Assembly: GCA_963846795.1 (NCBI GenBank)
Contig: CAWJXJ010000010.1
Location: 35,673-99,672, forward strand
Source: an uncultured Acidobacteriaceae bacterium
GTDB lineage: Bacteria; Acidobacteriota; Terriglobia; Terriglobales; Acidobacteriaceae
Length of the DNA: 64,000 bases
Direction of reading: 5' to 3'
Shown here in pieces: positions 45,485 to 63,106 of this stretch. The notes beneath the pieces were generated by a model. That model was not told the DNA's origin, searched no databases, and was given only the letters and a program-made list of their open reading frames with translations. The translations under genes and the position numbers were made by a program. How positions within the stretch are numbered: the stretch's first letter is position 1; each line of letters opens with the position of its first letter.

Positions 45485-46180
45485 GGCCGACTCAGCTTAG
45501 CCCAGTGCGCAGCGAAGCGGAGCGCTGGGTAGGGGCAGGATGACCATCGGAGCCCCAGCGGGGCTCCAAGGATTTACAGAACTCACCCAAATACGAATCG
45601 CGGATCGTATTCGAGTCCAGACTTCTTCAACAGCGTTAGAAACTCCTGCTCGAAGCTCCACGTCTTATGATGTTCCGCTTGTCCATCGATGTAATCGATA
45701 ACTACCTGGCGTTGCGATTGCGAAACGCTAAAGGCACCATAGCCCTCCTGCCATGAGAATCTGCATCCATGTTCGCCGATCCAGCGGGAACTGTGCGCCT
45801 TCAGGTCGCGCAATCCTGTCGAAAGGCACATGGCTGGAGAAATTCCGAGAAGAAGATGTACGTGATTCGTTGTACCGCCCGCAGCCATCAACAGTAGCTT
45901 CTTATCTCGAGCAACAACCCCCAAGTAGCGCCAGAGGGCCTCGGGATCCGGAATGTTGTCAGTCCGCCCCTTCGTGCTAAAGACGCAATGGACCAACATG
46001 GAGGAATAGGTGTGGGACATGCTTGCAGGGTACGGGAAGCGCCCATTGCGTTCGGTGATATCTGGCACAGTCCGGTGCTCAGCAAATCGCTCAGCGTAAG
46101 AGCCCCTACCGGGGCTCTGATTCATTGGCTACCTTACCCAGCGCTCCGCTTCGCTACGCGCTGGGCTAAGCTAAGTCGCC
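45485..46180. mobile_element. RayT (REP-associated tyrosine transposase) unit flanked by inverted REPs.
   Basis: Left REP 45485-45531 is the reverse complement of right REP 46135-46180 (TACCCAGCGCTCCGCTTCGCT.CGC.CTGGGCTAAGCT.AGTCG). Inner GC hairpins lie at 45549-45567 and 46099-46118. Confidence 0.8.
45583..46020 (-). CDS. rayT: IS200/IS605-like Y1 transposase of the REP-associated (RayT) type.
   Basis: MSHTYSSMLVHCVFSTKGR...NHVHLLLGI...SSRWI...WQEGYGAFSVS (HUH and Tyr regions). Confidence 0.85.
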   Translation of the reverse strand: MSHTYSSMLVHCVFSTKGRTDNIPDPEALWRYLGVVARDKKLLLMAAGGTTNHVHLLLGISPAMCLSTGLRDLKAHSSRWIGEHGCRFSWQEGYGAFSVSQSQRQVVIDYIDGQAEHHKTWSFEQEFLTLLKKSGLEYDPRFVFG

Positions 46181-46279
46181 CCTTCGGGGCTGTCGTAATC
46201 AAGCCCGTAACGCGATCCTTGCAGGCCGACAAGATGTTCTACCCAGGTTCTGCGCCAGCGTGGTGTCGCTTGGGATAAT

Positions 46280-47536
46280 CTACTCCGATCCGGGCGCCCG
46301 CTTCAGCGTCGGGCGATCCGGGTCGTCGCTGGTTTGGCTGGACGAGGAGTCGCTCCCCGGATTCGGCTGTGTGCTGCTAGTCTCGGTGCGCTTGAGCAAT
46401 ACCGGCCGGTGGCTGTCGGCGCCGCCGAGTTGCTGCTTCATTTCGAGTCCCAGCAGCCGCGCCTTCACCTGATCGAACTCGCTGGTATCCACAATGTAGC
46501 TTTCGCGATCGGGAAGGTACTGACGAATCTCATTCTGCGCCGCCGTCACCCGATCGGCGTTCATCGGATGCGTGGAGAACATTTTTGCCAGCTTGTTGTG
46601 TTTGGTCTTTTCCTCTACGTTCAGCTTTTCAAAAAATTGTACGAATGCTTGTGGATCGTAACCGGCGGCATAGTCGTACTCGAGTCCCAGCAGGTCGGCT
46701 TCACGCTCGGCATCGCGCGAGAATTTCAGGAATGTCATGGGCACGGCAATGCTGGCAATTTCAGCGATGGCGTATCCCGCGGGGCCACCGACAAACATCA
46801 AGGGAATCGAAGCCAGATTCCATATATCCGACTTGGTCATGTTCTTGGTGGCGTGTCGCGCCGCCACATGCGCGATCTCATGCGCCATCACGGCAGCCAG
46901 CTCGGCTTCGTTGTCGGCAGCCAGGATAAGCCCGCTGTCAACGTAGAAGAAGCCGCCGGGCAGCGCGAAGGCGTTGACCTCTTCGTTGTCGAGCACCTTG
47001 ATGGTGAAGGGCACCCGCGCGTCGGAGTTGCGCACCAGGTTCTGACCGATGCGATTGACGTATTCGGTGACGACGGGATCGCTGACTAGTTTCGAGGTGG
47101 CTTCAACTTGTTTGGAAAGATCGCGTCCCAGCGCTACCTCGCGATCCAGTGAATAGAAGTTCAAGCCCCCGGCGACTTCGCGTTGTCCGATGAGGCGAAC
47201 ATCGTACTTCGGCTTCAGCGGCTCAGCCGGGGCGACGCTCGGGCTGGGCACCATCGACTTCGCCGCAGTGGGCGGCGGGGCTGGCACGGGCTCGTCGGCA
47301 ACGCTAGTGGGTATTATCGTCTGCGGAGCATCGGGTGGCAGCGCAGTATCGGGCGGCAGAGAAACGGTCTGCAGCTTCAGGGCGCCCACCTGTTGAGCAA
47401 TCGAATCACCAGCTGTCGCGGCAGGTATGCGCTGCGCTAATAGTGCGGCCGGTAATAGCAGCGCAAAGAAGCAGACACAAGAGAACCATCTGGAGCCGTG
47501 GGGATTCATGGACCGAGCGCTGTGGAGGAGCTGCAC
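46280..47536 (-). CDS. M48-family Zn metalloprotease, secreted.
   Basis: VMAHEIAHVAARH, a signal peptide and a Pro-rich linker. Confidence 0.85.
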   Translation of the reverse strand: MQLLHSARSMNPHGSRWFSCVCFFALLLPAALLAQRIPAATAGDSIAQQVGALKLQTVSLPPDTALPPDAPQTIIPTSVADEPVPAPPPTAAKSMVPSPSVAPAEPLKPKYDVRLIGQREVAGGLNFYSLDREVALGRDLSKQVEATSKLVSDPVVTEYVNRIGQNLVRNSDARVPFTIKVLDNEEVNAFALPGGFFYVDSGLILAADNEAELAAVMAHEIAHVAARHATKNMTKSDIWNLASIPLMFVGGPAGYAIAEIASIAVPMTFLKFSRDAEREADLLGLEYDYAAGYDPQAFVQFFEKLNVEEKTKHNKLAKMFSTHPMNADRVTAAQNEIRQYLPDRESYIVDTSEFDQVKARLLGLEMKQQLGGADSHRPVLLKRTETSSTQPNPGSDSSSSQTSDDPDRPTLKRAPGSE

Positions 47537-47860
47537 AGTGGCACCCTTGATGTAGTGCTGTAATTATCCTGCGAAACCACCGAGTCGAAAAGTAAAAGTT
47601 TTGCTTGCCCCGAACTTGGCTTATCGGCCTGCCAACGCTTCCGTATCGCTGCGTCTGGGGAACATAGATGCCGCAGGAGTACAAGTGGCGGTCTGAAGCT
47701 GGGTGTCAGGTGTCAGGTGGAGGCGGCTAGCCGCCAGCCGCCAGCTTCCCGCCTAGGACAGGTTGTGCCTACTTCGAATGCTCCCGGCTGCGCGACGCTC
47801 CCCATCACTTCGAAGCGTCAGCGCTTTCGACTCGCACATCGTGCAACCAGGGATTGGGTT

Positions 47861-47937
47861 TAGCTGGTGGCTGGTGGCTGGTAGCTGGTGGCTGGTAGCT
47901 GGTGGCTGGTAGCTGGTAGCTGGCCGCTGATGGCTCG
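47861..47937. repeat. Heptanucleotide tandem array (about 11 units TRGCTGG).
   Basis: TAGCTGG TGGCTGG TGGCTGG TAGCTGG TGGCTGG TAGCTGG TGGCTGG TAGCTGG TAGCTGG CCGCTGA TGGCTCG. Further 7-mers occur at 47702-47720 (GGTGTCA x2) and 47948-47967 (GATACCY). Confidence 0.9.
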
Positions 47938-48005
47938 ACATCTGAGACCTGATACCCGATACCTGACGCCCCTTCCCTTGACAACCGCCCTATCAACCTT
48001 TATGA

Positions 48006-48032
48006 TTAGCACTCGTTGGGAGTGAGTGCTAA
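48006..48032 (+). promoter_or_regulatory. CIRCE operator (HrcA binding site).
   Basis: TTAGCACTC-GTTGGGAGT-GAGTGCTAA, a perfect match to the consensus TTAGCACTC-N9-GAGTGCTAA, 148 nt upstream of groES. Confidence 0.95.
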
Positions 48033-48179
48033 CACTCTGGCCAGCCGGCCGTCCAACAAGGGACTGCCCTAAGTTTTCATGGGAATTACCGGTCAAGCGC
48101 AACTTCATATATAGCGCCCAAATCGGTGATTCCTCAGCCCAAATAAATAGACCTAAGAGCATTGAAAGGAGTATCACGA

Positions 48180-48503
48180 ATGGCTACCAAGCTGACTCCC
48201 CTGCACGATCGGATCGTAATTCGTCGTGTGGAAGAGGCTGAAACCACCCGTGGCGGCATCATCATTCCTGACTCGGCGAAAGACAAGCCGCAGGAAGGTG
48301 AAGTGATTTCTGTCGGCCGCGGCAAGACCAACGACAAAGGCGAAACCTTCCCCCTCGATGTTAAAGCGGGCGATCGCGTCCTGTTCGGCAAGTATGCCGG
48401 CACCGAAATCAAAATCGACGGCGAAGACTTCCTGATCATGCGCGAGGAAGAAGTGCTCGGCATCCTGGAAGGCGCCAGCAAGCCCGCAATGGCCCACAAG
48501 TAA
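48180..48503 (+). CDS. groES: Co-chaperonin GroES.
   Basis: [42 protein letters not shown]... RBS AAGGAG. Confidence 0.95.
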
Positions 48504-48513
48504 TTTGTGAAAG

Positions 48514-48567
48514 GGCACGACTTTAGTCGTGCCGAAAAGGCCAAACAAAGTTCGGGGCTTTAGCCCC
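48514..48567 (+). other. Two GC hairpins with TTTA loops in the groES-groEL spacer.
   Basis: GGCACGAC-TTTA-GTCGTGCC (48514-48533) and GGGGC-TTTA-GCCCC (48554-48567). Confidence 0.6.
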
Positions 48568-48577
48568 TGAGAATTCA

Positions 48578-50285
<1,708 letters not shown>

Positions 50286-50289
50286 AGAC

Positions 50290-50314
50290 AGTGGCTAGTG
50301 ACTAGTGGCTAGTC
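50290..50314. repeat. Heptanucleotide tandem repeat.
   Basis: AGTGGCT AGTGACT AGTGGCT AGTC, starting 5 nt after the groEL stop. Confidence 0.8.
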
Positions 50315-50321
50315 AAAAGTT

Positions 50322-50350
50322 GGGCCTCGTGGAAACGCGGGGCCCTTTTT
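50322..50350 (+). terminator. Probable Rho-independent terminator of groESL.
   Basis: GGGCC...GGCCC imperfect stem followed by TTTTTCTT. Confidence 0.5.
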
Positions 50351-50360
50351 CTTGCGTTCA

Positions 50361-50390
50361 CCGACAACCGACAACTGGCCACCGACAACT
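50361..50390. repeat. Heptanucleotide tandem repeat (CCGACAA type).
   Basis: CCGACAA CCGACAA CTGGCCA CCGACAA CT. Confidence 0.8.
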
Positions 50391-50538
50391 CATATTGGGT
50401 GCCCCACTCCGGCTTCGTTTGCCGGGGTGAGGTTTTTTTCTTGCGCTGATTCTGAGTGCAGCCGTCGAGCCGAGTGGGTGTCCGGCTCCGGCTGTAAAAT
50501 TCTGTCGCGCTCAGCCTATGACCAGATGCTGGGCGTTC

Positions 50539-51549
50539 TCAAAAGCTGCCGGCCGACCCACCAGGCTCGTTGTTTCTCGGTGTCCGCCCCGGCGTCCCAG
50601 CCGAGCCTTGGGAAAGTTTCTCCAGATCAACCCAGTTCGATGAATTCACATCGCAATTGTTGTCCGCAGCCATGCACACCTGGAACATCGTCACCGGATG
50701 TAGTTCCCAAACAGTAGCGCGCCAACAGTTGCTGGTTGCTCCTGTCACGCCGCAGTCATCCTTCGTATCGTTGTGATCGTTGTCGACCATGAGTTGCCCA
50801 ACGACTTTGACCTTTCGGCCGCGCACCGACTTGACCACTTCAGAAGTCCAGTTCGGCTGAAAGGCGGCGCGATAGTGGGGCGTCATCTCGACCACAATAC
50901 TCTTTGCCTTGTCTGCCAGCTTGGCGCTGTTCGGACTGGTAAGAATTTCCGCTGCCCGGTTGGAATCGAAGCCAATGAAGATATGAAAATCCACGTCCGA
51001 TTCGGACTGGGTCAGCTTGCAGTTGCTGGTTTCACCGGTTCCGCCCGTCTCCGGAGTTATGGCATACAGATAACCGAGAGCTCCCTGCAACGATCCTTCG
51101 CCCAGATTTTTCAAAGGTTCGGCAAAGCTGTTGTGATTGCCCGTACCTAACTTAACCCCTTGCTTTTGTTCCAGGGCCTGTAATTGTTGCTCTTTCGCCT
51201 GAAACTGTTCGAGAGTGTTCCAGAAGCTGGCCGGCTGCGCTGCTCCCGAAAAATCGATCGTGTTCTTGACGTAATTCAGGTACGTATCGTAACTCTGACT
51301 CGAGTTGTTGCATCCCGAGCGGTACTTAGCATGGCACTCCGCAGAGTCCTGCACATCCTCGCATTGTTCCACCTGCAGATCGCCAGCCTTCACACCAGCG
51401 ACCGTGGCTGAGGGCGAACTGACGGCAGTAACCGTGGACGATGGTCCACCGGGGGATGCAGCCCCCACGGCCAATGCGAGCGCCAGCGGCGCAAATGGCG
51501 CAACACGCCGCGAAAACGTAGACGAAGAACGACTCTTAGTGGCTGCCAT
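50539..51549 (-). CDS. Secreted Cys-containing protein of unknown function.
   Basis: 336 aa. N-terminal FSRRVAPFAPLALALAVGA (possibly Tat-like). No family recognised. Confidence 0.6.
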   Translation of the reverse strand: MAATKSRSSSTFSRRVAPFAPLALALAVGAASPGGPSSTVTAVSSPSATVAGVKAGDLQVEQCEDVQDSAECHAKYRSGCNNSSQSYDTYLNYVKNTIDFSGAAQPASFWNTLEQFQAKEQQLQALEQKQGVKLGTGNHNSFAEPLKNLGEGSLQGALGYLYAITPETGGTGETSNCKLTQSESDVDFHIFIGFDSNRAAEILTSPNSAKLADKAKSIVVEMTPHYRAAFQPNWTSEVVKSVRGRKVKVVGQLMVDNDHNDTKDDCGVTGATSNCWRATVWELHPVTMFQVCMAADNNCDVNSSNWVDLEKLSQGSAGTPGRTPRNNEPGGSAGSF

Positions 51550-51569
51550 AGGTTCCTCGTTTCTCTAGC

Positions 51570-52127
51570 TCAGGCATTCGGCGGTGGAGTTACAACGGTG
51601 GTGTGAGTCACGGCGCCACCTGTTTCTGGCGGAGCTACTACCGTCGTATGGGTTACAACCCCTGCCGGAGGCGTAGACCCATCCCCACCGTCACCATCGC
51701 CGGCGCCATCGCTGCCCACCTGGATTCCCTTGCTAACCGCGTAAGTCGTCGCACTGATACCCAGCAAAGCCAGTACGCCAGTGGGTATCGCTTTAGGGAA
51801 GTCATGAACATCGACGACGATCAGGAGAAGACTGATCGCCACGACAAAAGTGAATATCAATAGTTGGAAACGGGACATACTAGCCCCGCCGCCCGGTGAG
51901 CCCTTCTCCTCGAGGAGCTGTGAGATATCGATTTTGCCACTGGCGATTGCCGCCAGGACCATGAAGCCAAACAGGAAAGTAATGACCAATGCGCCATACT
52001 CTATGGCGTAGACAACCTTCTCGTCAGGCTTGCCAGGAACCCAGATTGCGATGATGAACGCTACCACGATAGCTAGCGCCAGGCTTGCCCAAAATTCAAT
52101 GGTTGACGAATGGGCGTCGGTTTTCAT
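51570..52127 (-). CDS. Membrane protein of unknown function with a Gly/Asp- and Thr/Pro-rich tail.
   Basis: 185 aa, about 4 hydrophobic helices. The tail carries the duplicated GAVTHTTVV(A/T)PP. Confidence 0.55.
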   Translation of the reverse strand: MKTDAHSSTIEFWASLALAIVVAFIIAIWVPGKPDEKVVYAIEYGALVITFLFGFMVLAAIASGKIDISQLLEEKGSPGGGASMSRFQLLIFTFVVAISLLLIVVDVHDFPKAIPTGVLALLGISATTYAVSKGIQVGSDGAGDGDGGDGSTPPAGVVTHTTVVAPPETGGAVTHTTVVTPPPNA

Positions 52128-52507
52128 GGTGTTCTCCTATTGAGCAAAGCGATTAGATCCCGTGCTCGTCCCAGATACAAGGATTGCGCCTTCCCGCCCA
52201 GATAAACTGCGTGACTTCCGGCCAGCACTGCGAGCAAACCATCCGGCACATCAGGAAAATGGGTTGGATCCTGTATAACTTGCAGCAGATAGTATCCGGC
52301 GAAGCTTACGCTCATCATCAGCATTTGCGCACGGCCGGGGCTGAAGAAGACTGAAGGGCCCGCACCCCGCCGGACGCGCCTCGCATCTCCATAGAGCAGA
52401 TAATCAAGGCTGATGCCGCCCGTTATCAGCTTCCAGAGGACGACGCCAATGAACCCAAACAGCAGTATGACGCCTTCCCATATCGCTAGTTCGGCGGCGT
52501 TTGGCAT
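52124..52507 (-). CDS. Small membrane protein of unknown function.
   Basis: 127 aa. ATGA overlap with the downstream 185-aa gene. Confidence 0.5.
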   Translation of the reverse strand: MPNAAELAIWEGVILLFGFIGVVLWKLITGGISLDYLLYGDARRVRRGAGPSVFFSPGRAQMLMMSVSFAGYYLLQVIQDPTHFPDVPDGLLAVLAGSHAVYLGGKAQSLYLGRARDLIALLNRRTP

Positions 52508-52638
52508 GGCTTATCAGCCTATCTGCGGAGAAAATTGCGATTATCGTACACCCAGTGTCAAGTAGCAGCAATGATTGCTTTCGTCCGCCAAGCTATCGGA
52601 GTGGTCAGAAGCTTTCCTTGCCGATCGCTAGTAATTGT

Positions 52639-54054
52639 TTATCTCACCGGAGGCATATAAGCCATATAGCGCGCAAAAAGCCAGCACAGACAAAACACTA
52701 TAGGAATATGGATAAACATCTGTAAGACGGTGTAGCCCACCAAGTCTCGCGCCTTAAGCTTCAATATTCCAAGCAGCGGAAGCATCCAGAATGGATTGAT
52801 TAAATTCGGCAGCGCCTCTGCAGCATTATAGATTTGCACCACCCAACCTAGATGCACCTGATGAAGGTTTGCCGCCTGCAAAACATAAGGCGCTTCGATA
52901 ATCCACTTACTGCCGCCGGAAGGCACGAAGGTTCCCAGTATTGCCGAGTACAGCGCAACCAGCAGCGGATAGGTTCCGTGAGTAGTCACGCGCGCGAAGA
53001 GAGCGGCCAGCCAGGTTGAAATCCCAGTGCCGACGATCATCCCGAAGATCACCGCATAGAAGGGAAACTGGATGAGCACTCCGCCAGTTGCGGGCACTGC
53101 GTCTGCGACGGAGCGAACAAAGTTGCGTGGCTTCCAGTGCAACAATAACCCAACGGTGATGAAGATCAGGTTATAGGTATTCAGGTCGAGCGCAGCCAGC
53201 GCGCCTTGCGGCGAGCTGCGGAAGAAGTCGATGAGATACCAAACCATCAGTGCGCCGACGAAGATTGTCAGCAGCGGACTGTATTCCAGCCACTCGCCCG
53301 GCTTGGTGCGCTTTTCCGCGGCCAGGGGCCTGACGTCGTCTGTAATCCCAAACTGCTCCGCCGTTCGCGCGTTCTCCGGCGACGGCGCCGAGAGGTACGC
53401 GATCACCACCGAGACCACGACCAGCACCGCTGCCATGGTCATGCTTTGCCACAGAAACAATGTCTGACGCAGTGGGATAAGCCCGGACACAGCGAAGAGC
53501 GCTGGCGGAATCGAACTCTTCGTGGCCATCAGCATGGCGGCCGATGACGAAAGCCCGAGCGCCCACGTCGCTCCCAGTCCCAGGTAAGCTGCCGCTCCCG
53601 CTGCGCGGTAGTCCATGCCCTTCACACGGCGCGCCATCTCGCGTGCCAGCAGGCCGCTGAAGATCAGGCTCAGTCCCCACGAGATCAGCGACGTCAACAT
53701 CGAGAAGAGCGCTATCAGCGCGATCGCGCCACGCCCGGTTTTCGGCACGCGCGCCAGCGCCACGATGAGCCGGTTCACCAGCGGAGTGGTGGCAACCACG
53801 TAGCCGCCGATGATGATCATCACCATCTGCATGGTGAAGGGCACCAGCGTCCAGAAGTTCTTTACCCCCTGCACCGCGAGCTTTGAGGCGGATTCGTGCA
53901 GGCACAGGCCGATAAGAAACACGAGCACAATACCAAGCAGCGCGAAGACCAGCGGATCGGGGAACCAACGTTCGCTCCAATTAGCCAGGCCGAGCCCAAA
54001 ACGCGCCAGTCCGGATTCGGTATTTCTGTTGCCCACCTTCGATTGAGCCGCCAT
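52639..54054 (-). CDS. atoE: Short-chain fatty acid transporter (AtoE family).
   Basis: GLANWSERWFPDPLVFALLGIV... Polytopic, about 471 aa. Start taken at MAAQSKV. Confidence 0.8.
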   Translation of the reverse strand: MAAQSKVGNRNTESGLARFGLGLANWSERWFPDPLVFALLGIVLVFLIGLCLHESASKLAVQGVKNFWTLVPFTMQMVMIIIGGYVVATTPLVNRLIVALARVPKTGRGAIALIALFSMLTSLISWGLSLIFSGLLAREMARRVKGMDYRAAGAAAYLGLGATWALGLSSSAAMLMATKSSIPPALFAVSGLIPLRQTLFLWQSMTMAAVLVVVSVVIAYLSAPSPENARTAEQFGITDDVRPLAAEKRTKPGEWLEYSPLLTIFVGALMVWYLIDFFRSSPQGALAALDLNTYNLIFITVGLLLHWKPRNFVRSVADAVPATGGVLIQFPFYAVIFGMIVGTGISTWLAALFARVTTHGTYPLLVALYSAILGTFVPSGGSKWIIEAPYVLQAANLHQVHLGWVVQIYNAAEALPNLINPFWMLPLLGILKLKARDLVGYTVLQMFIHIPIVFCLCWLFARYMAYMPPVR

Positions 54055-54369
54055 GCCGATTCCCTTCTCCACTTGAAAAATTTCGTGGTGTGTTAAATGC
54101 CGCAAAGTCTAGCACAGACGGCAAGTGGGCGATTTCCTGATTGCATGAGCATCCGACACCAGGCAGACGCTCTGCTTCAGCGCGGCAAGGTCGCTGGCTT
54201 TGCTGAACCCAGCTCGCATTCTTTGACATGGCAAAAGTCCGGGTGGGGACTGCGGCCATACAACCGCGAGAGTGCTTTTGCCACTCCAATTGTTGAGGAG
54301 GAACTCTCGATCCGCGCCGCGACCACATGGTTGCCATATGCGGAGCGAGCAGCCACCTCAAGGAGAAGA

Positions 54370-54588
54370 ATGCGACCTCTAGCTCTCATCGGACTCGTCG
54401 TTTTGGTGCTCGGCATTCTGGCTTTCTTTGTGCCCTTCCCCAGCAGCAATACTCACGAAGCCAAAGTTGGAGACGCTTCGATCGGCATCACCACTCATCA
54501 CGATCAAAAGCTTTCACCGGCAGTCGGCGGCGTGCTTTGCGCTGTAGGCGCTGTCATGCTGATAGCCGGCTCTCGCAAGCCGGCATAG
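54370..54588 (+). CDS. Small two-helix membrane protein.
   Basis: MRPLALIGLVVLVLGILAFFVP...GGVLCAVGAVMLIAGSRK. RBS AGGAGAAG. Confidence 0.5.
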   Translation: MRPLALIGLVVLVLGILAFFVPFPSSNTHEAKVGDASIGITTHHDQKLSPAVGGVLCAVGAVMLIAGSRKPA

Positions 54589-54591
54589 CTC

Positions 54592-55029
54592 ATGCGCAAG
54601 GTGGCGAATGGCTCGTCCTCAAAACGGCAGGCGGTGAAGAAGCCTGCATCGGACTGGTTCGGCCAATTTTCATCGACGTGCTCTTCGTACCTGGGATCGC
54701 GATGGGCGTTCGCCGGAGCCGTCTCAGTCATCGTCGTCTGGGCGATGCTGGGTCCCATCTATCACTACTCCGACACCTGGCAACTCATCATCAACACCGG
54801 CACAACCATCGTCACCTTTCTCATGGTGTTCTTGATTCAAAACACACAGAACCGCGACGCCCGAGCCATCAATTTAAAGCTAAACGAACTGATACACGCC
54901 ATCAGCACCGCCCAGGACCAAATGATGGATATCGAGAACCTCTCCGACGACGAACTGGCTGTGCTCTCGCACCGCTACGAAAAGCTTCGCAAGGAATGCC
55001 TGCGCCGCCAGAAGGTGAAGTCGGCGTAA
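54592..55029 (+). CDS. Low-affinity iron permease family protein.
   Basis: WQLIINTGTTIVTFLMVFLIQNTQNRDARAINLKLNELI. Confidence 0.75.
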   Translation: MRKVANGSSSKRQAVKKPASDWFGQFSSTCSSYLGSRWAFAGAVSVIVVWAMLGPIYHYSDTWQLIINTGTTIVTFLMVFLIQNTQNRDARAINLKLNELIHAISTAQDQMMDIENLSDDELAVLSHRYEKLRKECLRRQKVKSA

Positions 55030-55041
55030 CCCTAACCCTGG

Positions 55042-55083
55042 CTATCAGCCGTCAGCCATCAGTTGTCAGCCGTCGGCTTTCAG
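55042..55083. repeat. Heptanucleotide tandem repeat (YRTCAGC type).
   Basis: TATCAGC CGTCAGC CATCAGT TGTCAGC CGTCGGC TTTCAGT, starting 13 nt after the stop at 55029. Confidence 0.8.
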
Positions 55084-55644
55084 TGGGACCACGACAATTG
55101 GTAACCTCCGACGGCATCTGCCGTGATTTGTTGAGGATTAGCGGCAATCAGAAATCCATCTGAGAGTTATCTCCCAGACATTGCATCGCAAGCCGACCTG
55201 CCGCATTGTTTGCCACACTTGGCACAATTGGATGCTTTCCCCGTAGGCCGCCAGATGGATGAAGGAGGTCGCGTATGAAACACCTGGTCGAAACCCAGCT
55301 TTCTCCAGCGCCGAAGCGAATTGGTCTCGGTTTATGCGACGGGGCAGGTGGATGGATTTTGCTCCGTGTTCTTGTCTCCCCTGCCGCATTTCAGTCCGTT
55401 CATCTCAGGCGTAAGCTTCGTCACGCCAGCGGGTCCTTACCAGTTGGCACATTCAACGCCCGATCTTAGTCCGCAGCCGTTAGAGGCTTTTGCTCCCGGG
55501 TCTAGAGCAGGGGCAAGTGAGTCCTTCGAGCTAGACGCTAAATTCGGGCCGGCATCGTACCTCGTCCCATGAGTAACGCTAAGCTAGCGCTCCTCATTGT
55601 GGGTAGTAGGCAGACAAACTACTACCCACACCTAGTCACGCCCG

Positions 55645-55968
55645 CTACTTTTGGTTCAGCGCGTCGATCTGATCCACCAGGGTCTCAATTTCCGAAGGCG
55701 TGAGTTTGCGGGTGTACTTCGGCATGAGGCCTTTGCCATTGTTAATAATATGATTCACATCGTTCTTGTTGGCCGCAGCAAGCTTTTCTGAAATGAGCGA
55801 TGATCCTAAGAAGTGCCGGCCCTTGGCATCCCGTCCGTGACATTTCGCGCATTGTTTCTGGTAAATCGGGTTGTCCGTCAGCTTTGCTTCCGGGCTTGAA
55901 TCCTGGGCAGTCGTCGCGATGGAAGCGGAGAAACAGAGGCAGGCTGCAATGAGTTGCGAAAGCTTCAA
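55645..55968 (-). CDS. Monoheme class I c-type cytochrome.
   Basis: CAKCHG motif. Signal peptide (M)KLSQLIAACLCFSASIATTAQ from a putative TTG start. Confidence 0.65.
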   Translation of the reverse strand: MKLSQLIAACLCFSASIATTAQDSSPEAKLTDNPIYQKQCAKCHGRDAKGRHFLGSSLISEKLAAANKNDVNHIINNGKGLMPKYTRKLTPSEIETLVDQIDALNQK

Positions 55969-56114
55969 GTTGACCTCGGACAACCTAAACCCAAACGGCC
56001 GGGCGTTGCCCAATATGATACCAGCGGGTACTCGTCGTTTGGCTGGCGATGAGAGCCGGGTCCTGCAGACGAAGCGTACACTGCTTTGCGTGTCGCCGGC
56101 TAAACCGGCTTCCA

Positions 56115-59100
56115 CTACAGCTTCACCCTTCGCAACCTCAACGCATTGGTAATTACCGACACGCTGCTGAAGCTCATAGCTGCGGCAGCGATGATGGGCG
56201 ACAAGAGCAGGCCGAACTTGGGATAGAGGATTCCGGCGGCGATGGGAACTCCGACCGAGTTGTAGACGAACGCGAAGAACAAATTCTGCTTGATGTTACG
56301 CATGACAGCGTGGCTCAGGTGACGGGCACGCACCAGCGCGCGCAGGTCTCCTTTGAGCAGCGTGATGCCGGCGCTCTCCATGGCAACGTCGGAGCCGGTC
56401 GCCATGGCGACGCCCACGTTGGCTTGCGCCAGCGCCGGAGCGTCGTTGATGCCGTCGCCCGCCATCGCCACCGTGCTCCCCTGCTGTTGCAGCCTCTTGA
56501 TGACGTCGGCTTTGTGATCGGGCAGCACACCGGCCTCGAAATCGCGGATGCCCAGCTTGCGCGCAACTGCTTGCGCGGTGGTCTGGTTGTCGCCGGTGAG
56601 CATGACGACGCGCAATCCCGCGCGCTGCAGATCGCGAACCGCTTCGGGCGCTTCGGGCTTGATGGGATCGGCAATGCCCAGCAGTCCTGAGGGTCGTCCG
56701 TCGATGACGGCGTAGACCACGGTCTGTCCATCGCGACGGAGTGCGTCGGCCTTTTCTCTTATGGAAGCGACGTCGAGACGCGACCGTTCGTCGTCCCAGG
56801 CTAGCCCAGAAGATGGGCGAACCTGGGGCACCTGGCGTTCCTCCAAGATCGCTGGCTCGATGATAGGGGTCCTTGGACTCCGTTCGGCTGCGCCTCATTG
56901 CGCTCAGGATGACGAGATTGATTTTTGTGCGTCTCGGCGGTTTGCTCCAGGAAAATTCCCAGTTCTTCCAATAGTCTGTCATTCCCCGCCGCGACTTCGT
57001 GTCCCCCAACCACACCGATGACGCCTTTGCCGGTGAGCGAACGGAAGCCATCGGGCGGAATCAGTCGCATGCCGTTGGCGAGCGCCGCGTCAACAATTGC
57101 CGCGCCCAGCGGATGCTCACTGCCACGCTCCAGGCTGGCCACCAGTTTGACGATGCTCTCTTCGGTCTCGCCGCTGAAGGCGACGACCTCTTGCAGTTCG
57201 GGCTTGCCCTGGGTGAGTGTGCCAGTTTTGTCGAGCACGATGGTCGTGACTTTGTCGAAGGTCTCAAGCGCTTCGGCGTTCTTGATGAGGATTCCGGCGC
57301 GCGCGGCGCGGCCAGTGCCGACCATAATCGCCATCGGCGTGGCGAGGCCAAGTGCGCAGGGACACGCGATGATGAGCACGGCTACGGCGTTCACGACAGC
57401 GTTAGCCAGTCGCGGCTCAGGCCCACGCAGCAACCACACAAAGAACGTGATGACGGAGATCGTCAGCACGGTGGGAACGAAGAATGCGGCGACACGATCG
57501 GCGAGGCGTTGAATGGGCGCGCGGCTGCGTTGCGCGGCACTCACCATCTGCACAATTTGCGCCAGCATGGTGTCGCTACCCACGCGTTCGGCGCGCATCA
57601 GCAGCCATCCCGTAGCGTTCACGGTTGCGCCGATCACTTTGTCGCCCATACGCTTCTCGACCGGCATGGGCTCGCCGGTAATCATCGATTCATCGACCGC
57701 GCTAAGGCCGTCGATCACGGTGCCGTCAGTCGGAATCTTTTCGCCGGGCCGCACCCGCAACTTGTCGCCGACCTTCACCTGATCGAGTGGGACGTCGTAT
57801 TCGCTGCCGTCGTCGCGCATGATGCGCGCCAGCTTGGGCGAGAGATCAAGCAGCGCGCGAATGGCTGAGCCGGTGCGACTGCGCGCTTTGAGTTCCAAGA
57901 CCTGGCCGAGCAGCACCAGCGCGATGATCGCGGCTGCGGCTTCGAAGTAGACCTCCGGCTGGCCGCCGTGCGTGCGCATGGTGTCGGGAAAAATCTGCGG
58001 CAGCAGCGTCGCCACCGCGCTATAGATGTACGCCACGCCGACGCCCAGCGCGATGAGCGTGAACATGTTCGGGCTGCGATGCTTCACCGAGGCCCATCCG
58101 CGCTGGAAGAACGGCCATCCTGCCCATAAGACAACGGGCGTCGCGAGCAGAAACTCGATCCACGTCGCTGCGCGCGGCGAGACAACGTGCATGAGCGGTC
58201 CCATGCGAAGCATTGCAAGAGCCACCAGCGGCACGCCGAGAATGATGCTCCACCAGAAGCGGCGCGTCATGTCGCGCAGCTCGGGATTCTCTTCCTCGGC
58301 TGCGGCCACCGTGCGCGGCTCCAGCGCCATGCCGCAGATGGGACAGAAGCCCGGCTGCGAGCGCACGATTTCGGGATGCATGGGGCAGGTCCACTCGGTG
58401 CGAGTGGCGGGCGCGAGTGGAGTCTCGGGTTCCAACGCCATGCCGCACTTGGGACAGGGTACGGGCTTGGTCTCGCGCACCTCCGGACACATGGGGCAGA
58501 CCCAGACGGTCCCCGCCGCTGACGGAGGAGCGGGAGGGGCAGCTGCTTTCGTGCCTGCCGGAGCGAGATACTTTTCGGGGCTCGCCCCTGAACTTCTCTG
58601 CACAGCCGCGGCAGCAGAAGTAGTAGGTCGTGCCTTTGTGGGCAAACGTTGCGGCCGCTTTCGCCGGATCGACATTCATGCCGCAGACCGGATCGCGCTG
58701 CGGCTTGGGAGCTGTCATCGGCTGCCCGAATCCGCCGATGCTCACCATCTGAGGCTTGTGCGACATGCCTCCGGGGCTGTAGCTCGGGGCCAGATATTTC
58801 TGCGGATCGGACTTGAATTTCTCGGCGCAGCCCTTGCAGCAGAAGTGATAGAGCTTGTGTTCGTACTCAACGCTCGCCGCGGCATTCGCGGGATCGACGT
58901 TCATGCCGCAGACTGGATCGCGATCGATCTTGCAGCTGGCGCCGATCTGGACGGTGGCTTCGCTGGACATGCCTCCGGGCTTGTATGAGGCCGATAAGTA
59001 TTTCCCGGGATCGGAGACGAATTTGTGCATGCATCCCGGCGAACAGAAGTAATAGGATTCGCCCTGGTGCTGCGCCCGCCCGCGCGCCTGCGCCGGATCG

Positions 59101-59174
59101 ACGCTCATACCGCAGACGGGGTCGTGGATTGCTGAGGGCGCGGGAACCTGCTGATTTGTTTCGGTGTCGCTCAT
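56115..59174 (-). pseudogene. copA: Copper-translocating P1B-type ATPase with an extended metal-binding N-terminus, disrupted twice.
   Basis: Fragments 58020..59174, 56801..58675 and 56115..56846 together give 3x YHS/TRASH (DPVCGM..YYFC..GC..KF), 2x CPM.PE...CP.CGMALE, CPC ([13 protein letters not shown]), DKTGTLT and [10 protein letters not shown]. The lesions are an extra G in the G4 run at 58577-58580 and a 128-bp insertion at 56788-56915. Confidence 0.8.
56788..56915 (-). mobile_element. 128-bp MITE-like insertion inside copA.
   Basis: Sense-strand ends are TCGTCATCCTGAGCG...CTGGGACGACGA (imperfect TIR). Deleting exactly these 128 nt restores one frame: ...THKNQS|[24 protein letters not shown]. 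Confidence 0.65.
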
Positions 59175-59230
59175 GCGCTCCTGATAAGCTGCTCTTTACC
59201 TCATTCTTACACCTTTATTCGGGGGTTGTG

Positions 59231-59458
59231 ATGACGAGTGTGGAAGTGATGTTCCGCTATGGCTTGCCGCCGGGTGAGACCGAAATGACCGCCATGGGCC
59301 AATTCAACGATGTTTACGGAATCCGGCGAGTGCGGATGAACGAAAAAGAGAAGACCATTCTTATCGAGTACGACGCAACGCGCCTGACGGAGACAGCTGT
59401 CGAGAAGTTGCTGCGGAGCGCTGGAATCGACATCCGCGAAAAGCTGGCGCTGGCTTAG
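59231..59458 (+). CDS. Small hypothetical protein divergent from copA (HMA-like tail, no CxxC).
   Basis: 75 aa: MTSVEVMFRYGLPPGE...KTILIEYDATRLTETAVEKLLRSAGIDI. Confidence 0.45.
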   Translation: MTSVEVMFRYGLPPGETEMTAMGQFNDVYGIRRVRMNEKEKTILIEYDATRLTETAVEKLLRSAGIDIREKLALA

Positions 59459-59854
59459 GAGTCGGCGCTACAGGTGGTTGACCAGAGAGGCTGCCTTGGA
59501 AGTTTGGCAGGCACTAAAAAGGGCCACCTGTGTGAGAGCTCTGGCCGATACTCCCAATCAGGTGGCCCTTATGCGCCACTTCGTCTGTTCGTATTATATG
59601 CATGAAGCGGGCCAAAAGTTCCGCGCCGCAAATAAAAGAGTTACGAGCCACCCGGTTGCCACGACCCAGCAAGTTTTTCCTACCGCAAAGCACTTTTTAC
59701 GTCTGGCGCGAAGGTGGGGGCTCTTGGAGCCTCACACTGATAAAGGAGCCATCGCCGACGTCATCGAGCAGGCTGTGGAAAACTCGGGAAGAAACACGTG
59801 TCGCGGGCTGAAAACCGGCACAGAAATTTCTTGTCACCGGCACCCTGCACTAGA

Positions 59855-59980
59855 TTGTCATCACGAGCGGAGCGAGGGATCTGTTCTCTGGTCGATAGTT
59901 GCAGGATTGTCGCGCTGGGAAGTCTTGCATGCAACAAACAAGAGCAGATCCCTCACGCCAAGAGGCGCTCGTGATGACAA
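59855..59980. mobile_element. 126-bp MITE-like palindromic element.
   Basis: Perfect 15-bp termini (TTGTCATCACGAGCG / CGCTCGTGATGACAA) plus an inner 10-bp inverted repeat (GAGGGATCTG / CAGATCCCTC). Confidence 0.7.
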
Positions 59981-60000
59981 ATCATCGGCGATCCTAGGCT

Positions 60001-60031
60001 CTGACAACCGACAACTGACAACCGACAACTG
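60001..60031. repeat. Heptanucleotide tandem repeat (CYGACAA type).
   Basis: CTGACAA CCGACAA CTGACAA CCGACAA CTG, ending 5 nt beyond the stop of the minus-strand M28 gene. Confidence 0.85.
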
Positions 60032-60035
60032 TTCC

Positions 60036-61712
60036 TCACTTCCCTGCCGCAAACCGTTCGAAGAAGCTGCCGCTGTTCCACGCCGGAGGCTTGGGAGCAT
60101 CGGCCACTCGCAAAGCGATGTCGGCCATGATGTCTTCAAACTTGCCGGCCGCCGCCAGATCGACCGGTTGGTTCAGGTCGTCGGAGGGAGCGTGGTAGCG
60201 ATCGTGCAGCCACTTCTTCGCCGTCGCTTCTTCCGGACTCCCCTTGGTGTAACCCACCTTCATCGCCAGCGATGGCACTCCCTGCTTGATAAAGCTGTAC
60301 TGATCGCTGCGTATAAAGATGTTGCGCAGCGGCTCGGGATCGGGCTGCACCTCGACATCGTTCTTCTGCGCTGCCCAACGTGCGTCATCGCCAAGTGTCG
60401 ACTCGTCAAGGCCGTACACGGTCACGATCTTCATCGGGAAAATCGGCAGAAACATGTCGGTGTTCAAGTCGGCGACGATGTCCCTCTTAGGCACTGTGGG
60501 TTTGCTGGCAAAGTAGCGTGAGCCAAGCAGTCCCTTTTCTTCCGCCGTCAGAAAGAGGAACAGCAGCGAGCGTTTCGGCTTGATACCTGCGGCATGCAAC
60601 TGGTCGGCTATATCGAGCACCAAGGCTGAGCCCGAAGCGTTATCCATCGCGCCGTTATAAATTTTGTCGCCATTGATTGGCTCGCCGATGCCGAGGTGGT
60701 CAAGGTGCGCCGAGAGCACTACATACTGCGAAGCCAGTTGCCGATCGGAGCCCGGCAGTTTGGCGACGATGTTCGCCGACTCCACCTGTTTGGTGATCTG
60801 CTTCGCCTTCGCCCTGATGCTCATGGTCAGCGGAAAGTGCGGTAATGGTTTGCGGTCTTTCCCCAGGGCAGCGATCTCAGCAAAGGTATGGCCTGAGCCT
60901 TCGAAAAGCTCTTCCGCCAATTCCGGATTCCACACAGCGGCCAATCCGATTCCCTTCCAGTCGTTGAACATTGGGTCGGCGAGCGACATACTTGGCCGCT
61001 TGCGGGCCAGCGTCATGCGGCTCCACGGAATGTCCATGGCCGCGGGATTGGGGATGATGATGTAGCCAATGGCTCCTGCTTTGCGCAACTCTTTGGCACG
61101 CTCTGTCGAAGACTGATAGTGCGAAGCCAGCGCCGCCGGCATGTCCTCGGGCGAACCACTGAAGATGACTGCGACCTTGCCTTTCACATTCACCCCGGCA
61201 TAGTCGTCATATTTCTTCTCCGGCACGTTCAGCCCGTAGCCGACAAAGACCAGCGGCGCTTCGGTTTGGGGAGCCAGGTCCACGCGCGTGCTGAACATCG
61301 CGTCTTCGCCAAGTTTGACGAACTGAGTGTTGCCGTCGCGTATCAGCTCCATGCTTGAGCCGTTCTCGTCAATCTCGCGGCTGACCAGCTTCACCGGCTG
61401 GTAGTAGCCTTTGTTACCCGCGGGCTGCAATCCATCCTTCTTCAACTGATCGACGACATACGCCGACGCGCGTTGCAGTCCCGGGCTACCGGTTTCGCGG
61501 CCCTCCATGTTGTCGTCAGCGAGGACCTTGACGTACTCCCACCAGCGCTTGCCATCGAACGTGGGCGCCGACTGGGCGAATGACAAATGTGAAACAGAGA
61601 CACAAGCGGAGAGGACAACCAGCGGCAGAAGCTGCAACGCCCGACGAGTTAGCAAGACAAAACTCCAGAGAGAGAATGCGGCTATTGTCGCGCACGGCGC
61701 TGATAGACACAA
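60036..61712 (-). CDS. M28-family aminopeptidase with a PA domain, secreted.
   Basis: 558 aa. Signal peptide. GRETGSPGLQRASAYV, GAMDNASGSA, FLFLTAEEKGLLGS. Confidence 0.85.
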   Translation of the reverse strand: MCLSAPCATIAAFSLWSFVLLTRRALQLLPLVVLSACVSVSHLSFAQSAPTFDGKRWWEYVKVLADDNMEGRETGSPGLQRASAYVVDQLKKDGLQPAGNKGYYQPVKLVSREIDENGSSMELIRDGNTQFVKLGEDAMFSTRVDLAPQTEAPLVFVGYGLNVPEKKYDDYAGVNVKGKVAVIFSGSPEDMPAALASHYQSSTERAKELRKAGAIGYIIIPNPAAMDIPWSRMTLARKRPSMSLADPMFNDWKGIGLAAVWNPELAEELFEGSGHTFAEIAALGKDRKPLPHFPLTMSIRAKAKQITKQVESANIVAKLPGSDRQLASQYVVLSAHLDHLGIGEPINGDKIYNGAMDNASGSALVLDIADQLHAAGIKPKRSLLFLFLTAEEKGLLGSRYFASKPTVPKRDIVADLNTDMFLPIFPMKIVTVYGLDESTLGDDARWAAQKNDVEVQPDPEPLRNIFIRSDQYSFIKQGVPSLAMKVGYTKGSPEEATAKKWLHDRYHAPSDDLNQPVDLAAAGKFEDIMADIALRVADAPKPPAWNSGSFFERFAAGK

Positions 61713-61810
61713 ATTGCGGCTGATCGCCTGAAAGTTGGTGGCTGATTCTCGCTGCCGTAGCTACCCGGAACGATCCGTAGAGCAACCACACGTCTGGATG
61801 ACGCCGGCTG

Positions 61811-62776
61811 CTAGGGTACGATCACCAGTCGACGCCCTGGCTGGTCGCGCTGCCAGGCGTTCTCGATATCGGCGAGAGGTACCCTTTCCGTATCCAGATG
61901 AAGCTCGCCCTTCGCGGCGTGCGTCATCACCTGCTGAAAAGCTTCCGCCAGAACGTCGCGAGGTGGAATCCCCGCGGTTCCCATAATTGTTAATGCCGAA
62001 CTTCGCAGCACGGCTGCTGGAAGCGTGATGGTCGGCGCAGCGCTCTCCCCAACTTGAACAAAGCGGGTTTCAGTTTGGATAGCCGCAAATTCTGCTCTTG
62101 TCATCGCGGCAAAAAATGCCTCCGCAGGCGCTCCCCAGACGTAATCGATGACAACTTGAAATCCGGACTGGCCGGCTTCCCGCAGAAATGCCTCGCTCAG
62201 TTCGGGGGTCGGTAGTGCGAGAGAAATGGTGGTGTCGGCGCCCATATCGCGTAGCGCATTCAGCGCCTGTTGGTTGCGTCCGGCCGCAACCACTCGAGCG
62301 GCGCCAAGCAGCTTGGCTATTTGTACAGCCAGCTTACCGGTCACTCCGGTCGCGCCCAGGATGAGGGCGTTTTCACCTGGCTGCAACTTCGCACGGTAAG
62401 CAAGTGTAAGCCACGCTGAGATACCGGGATTCGGCAAAGCAGCGGCAGTGTCGTCATTCACATTGTCAGGGACTGGAAAGGTGAATGCGCGCGGCACGAC
62501 CGTACGCTGCGCCATGGCGCCGTGAGGTGGTCGAGGCCCACCGAAGAAGACCCGTTGCCCATCGTCCAGATGCCCGACTCCATCCGTGCCGGGAACGCGG
62601 GGTAATGCGCCGCCGCTTGCATAATGCGCCCCGCTGGCCATTTGCTTGTCAACCGGTTTCAGCGATGCGGCGTGAACATGTACCATCACCTCACGGTCTT
62701 TGTCGCCGATGACCGGCTCCGGGAATTCTTCGTATCGAGGCACGCTCCCTATCGTGCGCAGGACGGCTGCTTGCAT
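61811..62776 (-). CDS. Zn-dependent alcohol dehydrogenase / quinone oxidoreductase (MDR superfamily).
   Basis: MQAAVLRTIG...; NALILGATGVTGKLAVQIAKLLGA. Confidence 0.85.
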   Translation of the reverse strand: MQAAVLRTIGSVPRYEEFPEPVIGDKDREVMVHVHAASLKPVDKQMASGAHYASGGALPRVPGTDGVGHLDDGQRVFFGGPRPPHGAMAQRTVVPRAFTFPVPDNVNDDTAAALPNPGISAWLTLAYRAKLQPGENALILGATGVTGKLAVQIAKLLGAARVVAAGRNQQALNALRDMGADTTISLALPTPELSEAFLREAGQSGFQVVIDYVWGAPAEAFFAAMTRAEFAAIQTETRFVQVGESAAPTITLPAAVLRSSALTIMGTAGIPPRDVLAEAFQQVMTHAAKGELHLDTERVPLADIENAWQRDQPGRRLVIVP

Positions 62777-63106
62777 GCGAGTTCCCCTTTCGACCTCAGA
62801 TTCTAGCGGCAGGTAAGCCACCCCGCAATCAGCGTAGGATGGGCAATCCGGAAACCAAGCCCCCAAATGCGGGCAAGACCGCTAACGAGAGATTTACGAA
62901 ACGCGATATAAATGTCAGCCGGAGTGCGAGTCTGCCCCAAGCGGACTCAAACCGCGTTGCCCTGACGCCCAGCATTCATGATCGGGTGACCCAGGTGTTG
63001 TTGCAATGTTCGTTACCGGGCGCGTATACCGTCCAAATTCGCCCATGTAGCGTGCTATCCTGATTTTTCCCGGACATCACAGCTTGTACTGTTGAAGTTC
63101 CTACAG

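Follow-up and report, generated by a model that had tools for sequence, protein, structure and literature searches.

Tandem arrays of seven-nucleotide units have been known in bacteria since 1990, and neither their origin nor what they do is established. Termed short tandemly repeated repetitive (STRR) sequences, such heptanucleotides occur in heterocystous cyanobacteria, including Calothrix (Mazel 1990, as cited in PMC4692102 and PMC4679880), and a summary in PMC4679880 gives heptanucleotides as the commonest long simple sequence repeats (SSRs) of many prokaryotes (Mrazek et al. 2007). Heptamer arrays are described here in a 64,000-nt stretch of DNA, hereafter the window, from an uncultured Acidobacteriaceae bacterium (GenBank assembly GCA_963846795.1, contig CAWJXJ010000010.1, positions 35,673 to 99,672). 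By its GroEL and M28 peptidase, the organism falls within Terriglobia (Acidobacteriota), close to uncultured 'Acidobacteriaceae' metagenome-assembled genomes. The arrays very probably belong to the heptanucleotide long SSR or STRR-like class, which, as far as the two papers above summarise it, likewise consists of intergenic tandem heptamers with a few unit families per genome and a sporadic distribution attributed to slippage. They add a new host lineage and unit family to this known class, with one family here, mostly (G-Y-N-N-T-C-R)n; no description of heptamer arrays in Acidobacteriota was found in the literature searched. An earlier note on this DNA, made from the sequence alone, had pointed out the arrays. 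Beyond it, the repeat class proves to be already described, and the arrays prove to have a fixed polarity.

In Xanthomonas and Nostoc, heptamers with the units GGGAATC and GGGGAYT, respectively, show a clear preference for four units. These repeats are under-represented in coding DNA and between divergent open reading frames (ORFs), form 70–75 convergent pairs per genome and lie close to stop codons on the coding strand, with upstream arrays on the non-coding strand. Most of them are transcribed, groES is among the associated genes, and the function is given as unknown (Rehm et al. 2015, PMC4692102). Both heptamers form G-quadruplexes (G4) in vitro, and in Xanthomonas, G4-forming repeats coincide with transcript starts or ends more often than control repeats do (PMC4692102). 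The arrays described here are alike in their 7-nt units, their length of about four units, their depletion from coding DNA and divergent spacers, their proximity to stop codons on the coding strand, their convergent pairs and the presence of groES among the neighbouring genes. The Xanthomonas placement rules (stop adjacency, polarity, convergent pairs and about four units) thus hold in a different phylum. However, the units GTTGTCR, GCTGTCA, GGTGTCA, TAGTGRC and CAGCYAC contain no GGG and therefore lack the tract of at least three G that marks the published heptamers. Moreover, unlike Xanthomonas, in which one unit dominates, several unit variants here share a CAG/TCRG anchor. Because units without G-tracts follow the same placement rules, G-quadruplexes cannot be the general explanation for these rules.

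A second described system consists of TAACTGA direct repeats, which are distributed patchily among marine Beggiatoaceae, cyanobacteria and Bacteroidetes (MacGregor 2015, PMC4679880). The reverse complement of this unit, GTTATCA, is one base from the GTTGTCA of the window, the distribution is patchy in both cases, and among the matches listed from other genomes, GTTATCA and GTTGTCA units are mixed within single arrays. The exact TAACTGA unit is absent from the window arrays, which instead carry CTGACAG, CCGACAA and CTGACAA, one base from CTGATAA. In a Beggiatoaceae genome, most TAACTGA arrays lie directly upstream of start codons, overlapping the ribosome-binding site (RBS) (PMC4679880). Only one window array (48578–48607, before groEL) has such a forward, start-proximal placement, whereas most single arrays here follow stop codons in reverse orientation. 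Five-unit MTYCTGA sites have additionally been described in Geobacter metallireducens (PMC2700814).

Arrays of the window were located with Tandem Repeats Finder (TRF) and by reading of the sequence, which together placed all arrays named earlier to within a few bases of their previous coordinates. A period-7 array was scored where at least 15 of 21 positions were identical to the base 7 nt ahead. By this criterion, the window contains eight arrays compared with a mean of 0.44 and a maximum of 2 in 200 dinucleotide-preserving shuffles, so that the strict 7-nt period is not a product of chance. Other periods that are not a multiple of 3 give at most one array each (0–1 for periods 5, 8, 10 and 11). 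Genes were mapped with a crude caller based on ORFs and on GC content at third codon positions (GC3), combined with Pfam, the annotated gaps being those from 46 kb onward. None of the eight arrays falls within a called gene, and their units adjoin directly in 2.4–10.4 copies (TRF), as in other heptanucleotide long SSRs and STRR-like arrays. As had been argued before, the arrays are thus not coding repeats, and abutting units with no unique spacers also exclude CRISPR. No array matched any known RNA family in an Rfam search.

When each is read on one strand, nine window arrays share a YRG-NNNN register, with the units CAGGTGT, CAGCCGC, CAGCYAC, CRGGTAT, CAGCTGT, TAGTGRC, CGGTTGT, CAGCCGT and CAGTTGT. 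The CAG anchor is present in seven of the nine (p = 6e-4 against a rough chance estimate of 14/64 per array), and five carry TCRG in phase. The shared core that had been suspected is therefore real, and the arrays form one related family. Conservation within the unit is likewise uneven. In arrays found by self-similarity alone, then phased on TCRG and compared unit by unit with the majority base of their own array, the deviating units amount to 23% at N2, 28% at N3, 22% at R, 14% at T4, 10% at N1, 9% at C5 and 3% at G7 (chi-square p = 4e-7). A C-R-G core at 7-nt spacing is kept while the spacer positions drift, and a conserved anchor with drifting spacers is the pattern that protein recognition would leave.

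The position of the arrays relative to genes was assessed in 160 loci (2.1 Mb in all) that surround homologues of groEL or of the M28 peptidase gene, of which the Acidobacteriota subset comprises 1.5 Mb. In this subset, period-7 arrays number 22.9 per 100 kb of intergenic DNA versus 1.3 per 100 kb of coding DNA, an 18-fold difference, and all other periods stay at or below 5.3 per 100 kb in intergenic DNA. When the 160 loci and the window are taken together, 67 arrays have a stop codon on one or both sides, and 23 of them (34%) start within 6 nt of a stop, compared with 4.9% under random placement in the same spacer. Counting the orthologous groEL, M28 and hfq sites once each leaves 13 of 56 (p = 2e-6). 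Start codons show no such enrichment in the same DNA. Furthermore, array density is highest in convergent spacers (46 per 100 kb), intermediate in tandem spacers (30) and lowest in divergent spacers (7.6). Proximity to stop codons is thus a genuine statistical bias, and together with the sequence relatedness of the arrays it sets them apart from random microsatellites. The statement that the arrays lie mostly within a few nucleotides of stops was too strong for the window itself, where only three of the nine adjoin a stop; four lie in one nested palindrome, one at the groEL RBS and one between the groEL terminators.

The polarity of the arrays is fixed: beside a stop codon, reading away from it gives the CAG/TCRG strand, and reading towards a following start gives the complementary strand. 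At all eight loci taken as independent among the relatives, stop-adjacent arrays of the TCRG family read GTCAG (G-Y-N-N-T-C-R) in the sense of the upstream gene. In the window, the iron-permease gene (plus strand) and the M28 peptidase gene (minus strand) lie 5 kb apart, and each array follows its own gene. Since array sense follows both of these oppositely oriented genes, polarity tracks transcription rather than replication. A search across phyla with the exact pattern (GTTGTCR)3G, restricted to one genome per species, returned at least 120 stretches. Those among the matches listed come from at least 10 phyla, with representatives in Acidobacteriota, Planctomycetota, Bacteroidota, Cyanobacteria (Calothrix, Nostoc, Tolypothrix and Microcoleus), Calditrichia, Lysobacterales, Latescibacterota, Poribacteria, Chloroflexota and others. 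In 128 (GTTGTCR)n arrays among these matches, a long ORF ends within 20 nt upstream 42 times on the GTTGTCR strand versus 19 times on the opposite strand (p = 0.004), and 11 of the 19 opposite-strand ends use a TGA supplied by the array itself. Viral contigs contain 93 stretches with (GTTGTCR)n; here ORF ends are split 43 versus 24, and the median length is 4.1 units in 108 arrays.

Considered together, these data are best explained by arrays of a known class that are kept as strand-specific cis-elements at gene boundaries, an explanation to which we give about an even chance. The arrays of the window and the genes around them are listed in Table 1.

Table 1. Heptamer arrays of the window and genes in their neighbourhood
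Feature	Position	Strand	Basis and remarks
Composite nested palindrome of four heptamer arrays	47697–47975	.	Separates the groESL promoter from the divergent M48 peptidase gene
Outer left arm, (CAGGTGT) x2.6	47702–47722	+	TRF 47702–47719 as GGTGTCA x2.6
Inner left arm, (CAGCCGC) x2.4	47727–47747	+	TRF 47729–47745 as AGCCGCC x2.4
Inner right arm, (CAGCYAC) x10–11	47861–47937	-	GCTGGTR on plus strand; TRF 47863–47935, 10.4 copies, 84–89% match
Outer right arm, (CRGGTAT) x3	47944–47971	-	Short run 47948–47967 confirmed by reading
groES-groEL spacer array, CAGCTGT	48578–48607	-	TRF; CTGACAG x4.3 in mRNA sense; ends 2 nt before AAGGAG RBS
groEL 3ʹ untranslated region (UTR) array, (TAGTGRC) x3.4	50287–50316	+	TRF 50290–50313; AGTGGCT/AGTGACT; between stop and first terminator
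Array CGGTTGT	50357–50392	-	TRF 50360–50389; CCGACAA x4.3 on plus strand; between tandem terminators after groEL
Iron-permease 3ʹ array, (CAGCCGT/CAGCCAT/CAGTTGT) x6	55040–55084	+	TRF 55045–55074, TCAGCCG x4.3; six in-phase TCRG cores at 55044–55083
M28 peptidase 3ʹ array, (CAGTTGT/CGGTTGT) x4.4	59999–60033	-	TRF 60001–60031; CTGACAA/CCGACAA on plus strand
M48 peptidase gene	46280–47536	-	
groES			
groEL	48624–50285		
Short-chain fatty acid transporter gene			
Iron-permease gene	54592–55029	+	
Cytochrome c gene			
P-type ATPase gene			
M28 peptidase gene	60036–61712	-	

Three genes of the window are followed by an array shortly after their stop codons, as had been noted. The array begins 1–4 nt (50287–50290) after the groEL stop, which ends at 50285, and 11–15 nt (55041–55045) after the iron-permease stop, which ends at 55029. 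For the M28 peptidase, with its stop at 60036–60038 on the minus strand, the distance is 4 nt. In each case, the CAG or CAG-register strand lies in the sense of the gene. The M28 array is kept, degenerate but in phase, in 8 of 10 relatives with 82–92% protein identity (L081, L082, L083, L084, L086, L087, L128 and L147). These orthologous arrays differ by point changes and not by replacement, and the sequence farther downstream, judged by eye, differs among the relatives except for a miniature inverted-repeat transposable element (MITE) common to some loci. The closest homologues of the iron permease are at most 71% identical, and none has an array.

Changes in unit number are also evident. In soil samples X2 and X5, the groEL 3ʹ array occurs as an allele one 7-nt unit shorter at 50295, and the X5 contig is otherwise identical over 365 nt. 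Contigs of samples X1–X3 span the groES-groEL array without indels and the iron-permease array with its length unchanged. The copy-number comparison that had been proposed thus yields one variable and two constant arrays, and unit number is gained and lost by slipped-strand mispairing in whole units. The arrays can therefore serve as length-polymorphic markers between near-identical strains, and they break short-read assemblies. Neutral microsatellites would also arise and drift by slippage, with 7-base loops that escape mismatch repair and are tolerated outside genes. The one-unit allele between otherwise identical strains, the sporadic distribution among lineages and the top rank of heptanucleotides among the long SSRs in many prokaryotes (summary of Mrazek et al. 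2007 in PMC4679880) are all expected from such drift. However, mere tolerance fails to predict the peak within 6 nt of stops, the polarity, the position-specific decay of units and the retention at orthologous sites, and the arrays at 48578 and 55045 are constant in length in three soil samples. Purely neutral origin and maintenance are therefore distinctly unlikely.

Slippage had further raised the prospect of a contingency locus. The slippage itself is real, as the shorter allele in two samples indicates, but all arrays lie outside ORFs and outside the spacer between –35 and –10 elements, the nearest ending 6 nt upstream of the groESL –35. The gain or loss of units would thus leave genes unswitched. 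The neighbours are moreover housekeeping genes (groESL, peptidase, permease), and the hallmark of a phase-variable locus, an SSR inside a reading frame or a promoter spacer, is absent. A G4 element, for which the in vitro behaviour of the Xanthomonas and Nostoc heptamers provides the precedent (PMC4692102), fails for the want of G-tracts: GTTGTCA and GCTGTCA contain no GGG, and G4 cannot account for placement rules held in common with Xanthomonas. Phase-variation switches or G4 elements are accordingly extremely improbable as explanations of the arrays.

Inverted pairs of arrays are common in the fetched loci, many with spacers of 17–413 nt, and every pair inspected in the window or in a close relative of it is convergent. 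Where such a pair is flanked by genes of the same direction, the sense-strand RNA folds more stably in eight of nine cases. Gene-linked polarity and this sense-strand advantage together point to the transcript as the level at which the arrays act. In two close relatives (L082, 5817–5844, and L086, 5945–5976), the stop codon of an hfq-like gene marks the start of a (GTTGTCR) array, which has an inverted partner about 410 nt away; this pair encloses no ORF of at least 100 aa and has no Rfam match.

The groEL 3ʹ end illustrates how arrays are arranged relative to ordinary terminators. Two intrinsic terminators, with stems at 50322–50345 and 50405–50429 and a T run after each (extents 50322–50355 and 50405–50440), follow the gene. 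The 3ʹ array lies between the stop codon and the first terminator and should thus be part of the mRNA. It faces the 50357–50392 array across that terminator, and the latter array lies about 150 nt downstream of a convergent minus-strand gene. The real terminators are separate from the arrays, which stand beside them and do not replace them. In the spacer between groES and groEL, the array is predicted to form a small self-hairpin through its CAGCTG palindromes.

The largest element is the nested palindrome upstream of groESL, whose inner left arm pairs in the RNA fold of the plus strand with the GCTGGTR array, the longest of the window, through G-U pairs. Its predicted folding energy is –146.2 kcal/mol on the plus strand (z = –4.35) and –123.1 on the minus strand. 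The palindrome ends 3 nt before the –35 hexamer of a near-consensus sigma-70-type groESL promoter (TTGACA at 47978, 17-nt spacer, TATGAT ending at 48006), with the inverted repeat termed CIRCE (controlling inverted repeat of chaperone expression) directly after it (47978–48033). A matching palindrome layout with different units (GGCGTCA arms) is found upstream of the groES/groESL promoter of a related locus, L001. Additionally, in the long array (within 47863–47935), tandem GCTGGTG units give rise to four copies of the E. coli Chi octamer, GCTGGTGG, over 42 nt, and 12 more copies are present in the window on both strands. We know of no Chi sequence of Acidobacteria, and the copies in the long array are probably a coincidence.

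These folds bear on the idea that paired arrays act as bidirectional hairpins that end or protect transcripts. Array density peaks between convergent genes, many inverted pairs have short to moderate spacers (17–413 nt), folding is strong, and the Xanthomonas transcripts that start or stop at G4-forming repeats (PMC4692102) provide a parallel. Nevertheless, the three stop-adjacent arrays of the window have no complementary inverted partner, and two of them, the iron-permease array (fold z = –0.62) and the M28 array (z = +0.3), are unstructured on their own. groEL has two canonical terminators with arrays beside them, and the single large palindrome is found in a divergent spacer, upstream of a promoter. 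A role as terminators or 3ʹ-end stabilisers is hence very unlikely, and the arrays in particular do not have the make-up of an intrinsic terminator (a GC-rich hairpin with a U tract behind it), as the single arrays are unstructured and the real terminators are separate from the arrays. The suggestion that the arrays form a transcript 3ʹ-end structure finds backing in the inverted pairs and fails for the single iron-permease and M28 arrays and for groEL. In a variant of this idea, hairpins starting within about 15 nt of the stop could stall terminating ribosomes. REP elements near stop codons reportedly do so in E. coli, according to Liang, Rudd and Deutscher in 2015.

Array density is a property of the clade. 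The window has 12.5 arrays per 100 kb and the ten closest loci have 12.4, compared with 3.0 in the next Acidobacteriaceae metagenome-assembled genomes, 2.2 in other Acidobacteriota and 0.7 in a set including cultured Granulicella, Tunturiibacter and Terracidiphilus. Repeated extragenic palindromes (REPs) and the bacterial interspersed mosaic elements (BIMEs) that they build are short intergenic repeats, often arranged as inverted pairs at gene ends and present in hundreds of copies per genome, with possible effects on mRNA stability and termination. The heptamer arrays resemble them in being short, intergenic and often paired in inverted orientation at gene ends. However, REPs are single imperfect palindromes with a unit of 20–40 nt, not tandem heptamers, and the arrays do not have the make-up of a REP/BIME system with its REP-associated tyrosine transposase (RAYT).

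The main rival to the preferred explanation is a selfish or factor-maintained hairpin element, in which the arrays are palindrome arms that a lineage-specific protein writes, copies or maintains, as RAYT does for REP, and single arrays are half-elements. Several observations favour such an element. Metagenome contig depth over the 31-nt array at 60001–60031 is 92 versus about 20 in sample X1, and contigs run on from it into several different sequences on both sides; over the GCTGGTR array it is 59–76 versus about 20 in X1, with smaller excesses in X2–X4. Short-read contigs end inside both arrays. In a read from run X10, the inner arms of the palindrome are joined by a loop of just 5 nt (AGCAA), so that the window palindrome resembles a hairpin whose loop has received an insertion of 116 nt. 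Density is clade-specific (12.4–12.5 versus 0.7–3 per 100 kb in other Acidobacteriaceae), the unit recurs in at least 10 phyla and in the viral stretches, and the inspected pairs are all convergent. On the other hand, the differing contig continuations argue against conserved sequence beside the arrays. In the fetched loci, the intervals within adjacent inverted pairs are free of ORFs of at least 100 aa, and none of the 30 window ORFs scanned against Pfam matches PF05635, a four-helix-bundle family that is a candidate for such a factor. Orthologous arrays change by point substitution and not by replacement. The Y1 transposase gene of the window, of the IS200-like/RAYT-like type, is flanked by Acido-Lenti-1-type motifs and not by heptamer arrays. 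On balance, a selfish element is unlikely.

This Y1 transposase gene (45583–46125, minus strand; PF01797, E = 3e-16) has inverted, self-hairpinning repeats at 45489–45537 and 46132–46191, the right one of which matches the Rfam family Acido-Lenti-1 RNA (RF01687) with 50.5 bits. As Acido-Lenti-1 repeats flank the gene, this 'small RNA' motif looks like the REP-type partner of a RAYT-like transposase.

A related proposal is that the arrays are the footprint of a horizontally moving, trans-acting system, a REP/RAYT-like partnership for STRR repeats. An oligomeric single-strand-binding protein would recognise, in blocks of about four units, the C-R-G core that recurs every 7 nt, and would create, home to or maintain arrays at gene boundaries. 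Such a system would explain why the same GTTRTCA unit and polarity occur across Acidobacteriota, cyanobacteria, Bacteroidota, Planctomycetota, Beggiatoaceae and phage contigs, and it would also explain the density jumps between sister clades and the conservation of the core. We regard the proposal as having a low probability. The density contrast, about 4- to 20-fold between sister clades, means that a comparison of gene content could name the partner protein.

Under the preferred explanation, that of strand-specific cis-elements, the arrays may function as a transcript-level binding platform or hairpin arm, a suggestion drawn from sequence patterns and offered somewhat short of even confidence. 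An array of about four units would offer a platform of regularly spaced sites to some multi-subunit or repeat-domain factor, which would read a core of about 4 nt every 7 nt on single-stranded nucleic acid, most plausibly in the 3ʹ or 5ʹ UTR of a transcript, and two facing arrays would form the pair of arms of a long hairpin. Strand polarity and the uneven conservation of positions within the unit agree with the binding platform envisaged in the earlier note.

Several points weigh against this explanation. The groES-groEL array has the complementary orientation relative to its mRNA, and the L001 counterpart of the palindrome folds more stably on the opposite strand. The largest element, at 47697–47975, lies upstream of both divergent genes and may escape transcription altogether, a situation more in keeping with a DNA-level or selfish role. 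G+T richness alone could account for the more stable sense-strand folds. About 2 Mb of loci, selected for their proximity to three genes (groEL, M28 peptidase and iron permease), underlie the statistics in place of whole genomes, and the gene map is imperfect, several of the ORF/GC3 calls being wrong. All that four soil metatranscriptome runs yielded was conserved groEL sequence of other organisms, in pieces of about 50 nt. Finally, no binding factor for heptamer arrays is known to us.

Other candidate functions were considered and rejected. A stop barrier in all three frames was suggested by the period (7 mod 3 = 1) and the TGA in the unit, but the stop-adjacent arrays of the TCRG family contain no sense stop codons (the groEL TAGTGRC array does). 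Moreover, the position that makes TGA (R/Y) toggles in 22% of units, and the best-kept position, G7, lies outside TGA. The consensus of an RNA polymerase pause (G–10, Y–1, G+1) would place its G–10 at the most variable position of the unit. A Rho utilisation site on the sense strand is contradicted by sequence that is rich in G and U and poor in C.

A MITE-like palindromic element of 126 bp (59855–59980), with TTGTCATCACGAGCG ends, is situated about 20 nt beyond the M28 array; its ends show excess metagenome contig depth (92 versus 20) and many alternative continuations. Elements related to it are found after the M28 gene in L082, L086 and L088, and L001 has one between groES and groEL. A single viral contig of 42.6 kb (IMGVR_UViG_3300043379_000009) contains at least 11 (GTTGTCR)n arrays, mostly of about four units (loci L367, L381, L395, L407 and L428), and heptamer arrays thus also populate phage or prophage DNA.

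Within the window, five of six array-bearing loci fall in the last 16.5 kb (47500–64000), which holds about a quarter of the window DNA outside called genes (p = 0.006). The array-poor part (1–47500), with dsr/apr/sat sulfur genes, an Ogr/Delta zinc-finger gene and a transposase, may be more recently acquired DNA. Lastly, the copper-type P-type ATPase gene is split at 56801–56846, and short-read contigs from three samples are 14 nt shorter in total around 56836–56858; the apparent frameshift may reflect an assembly error in the window or a difference between strains.

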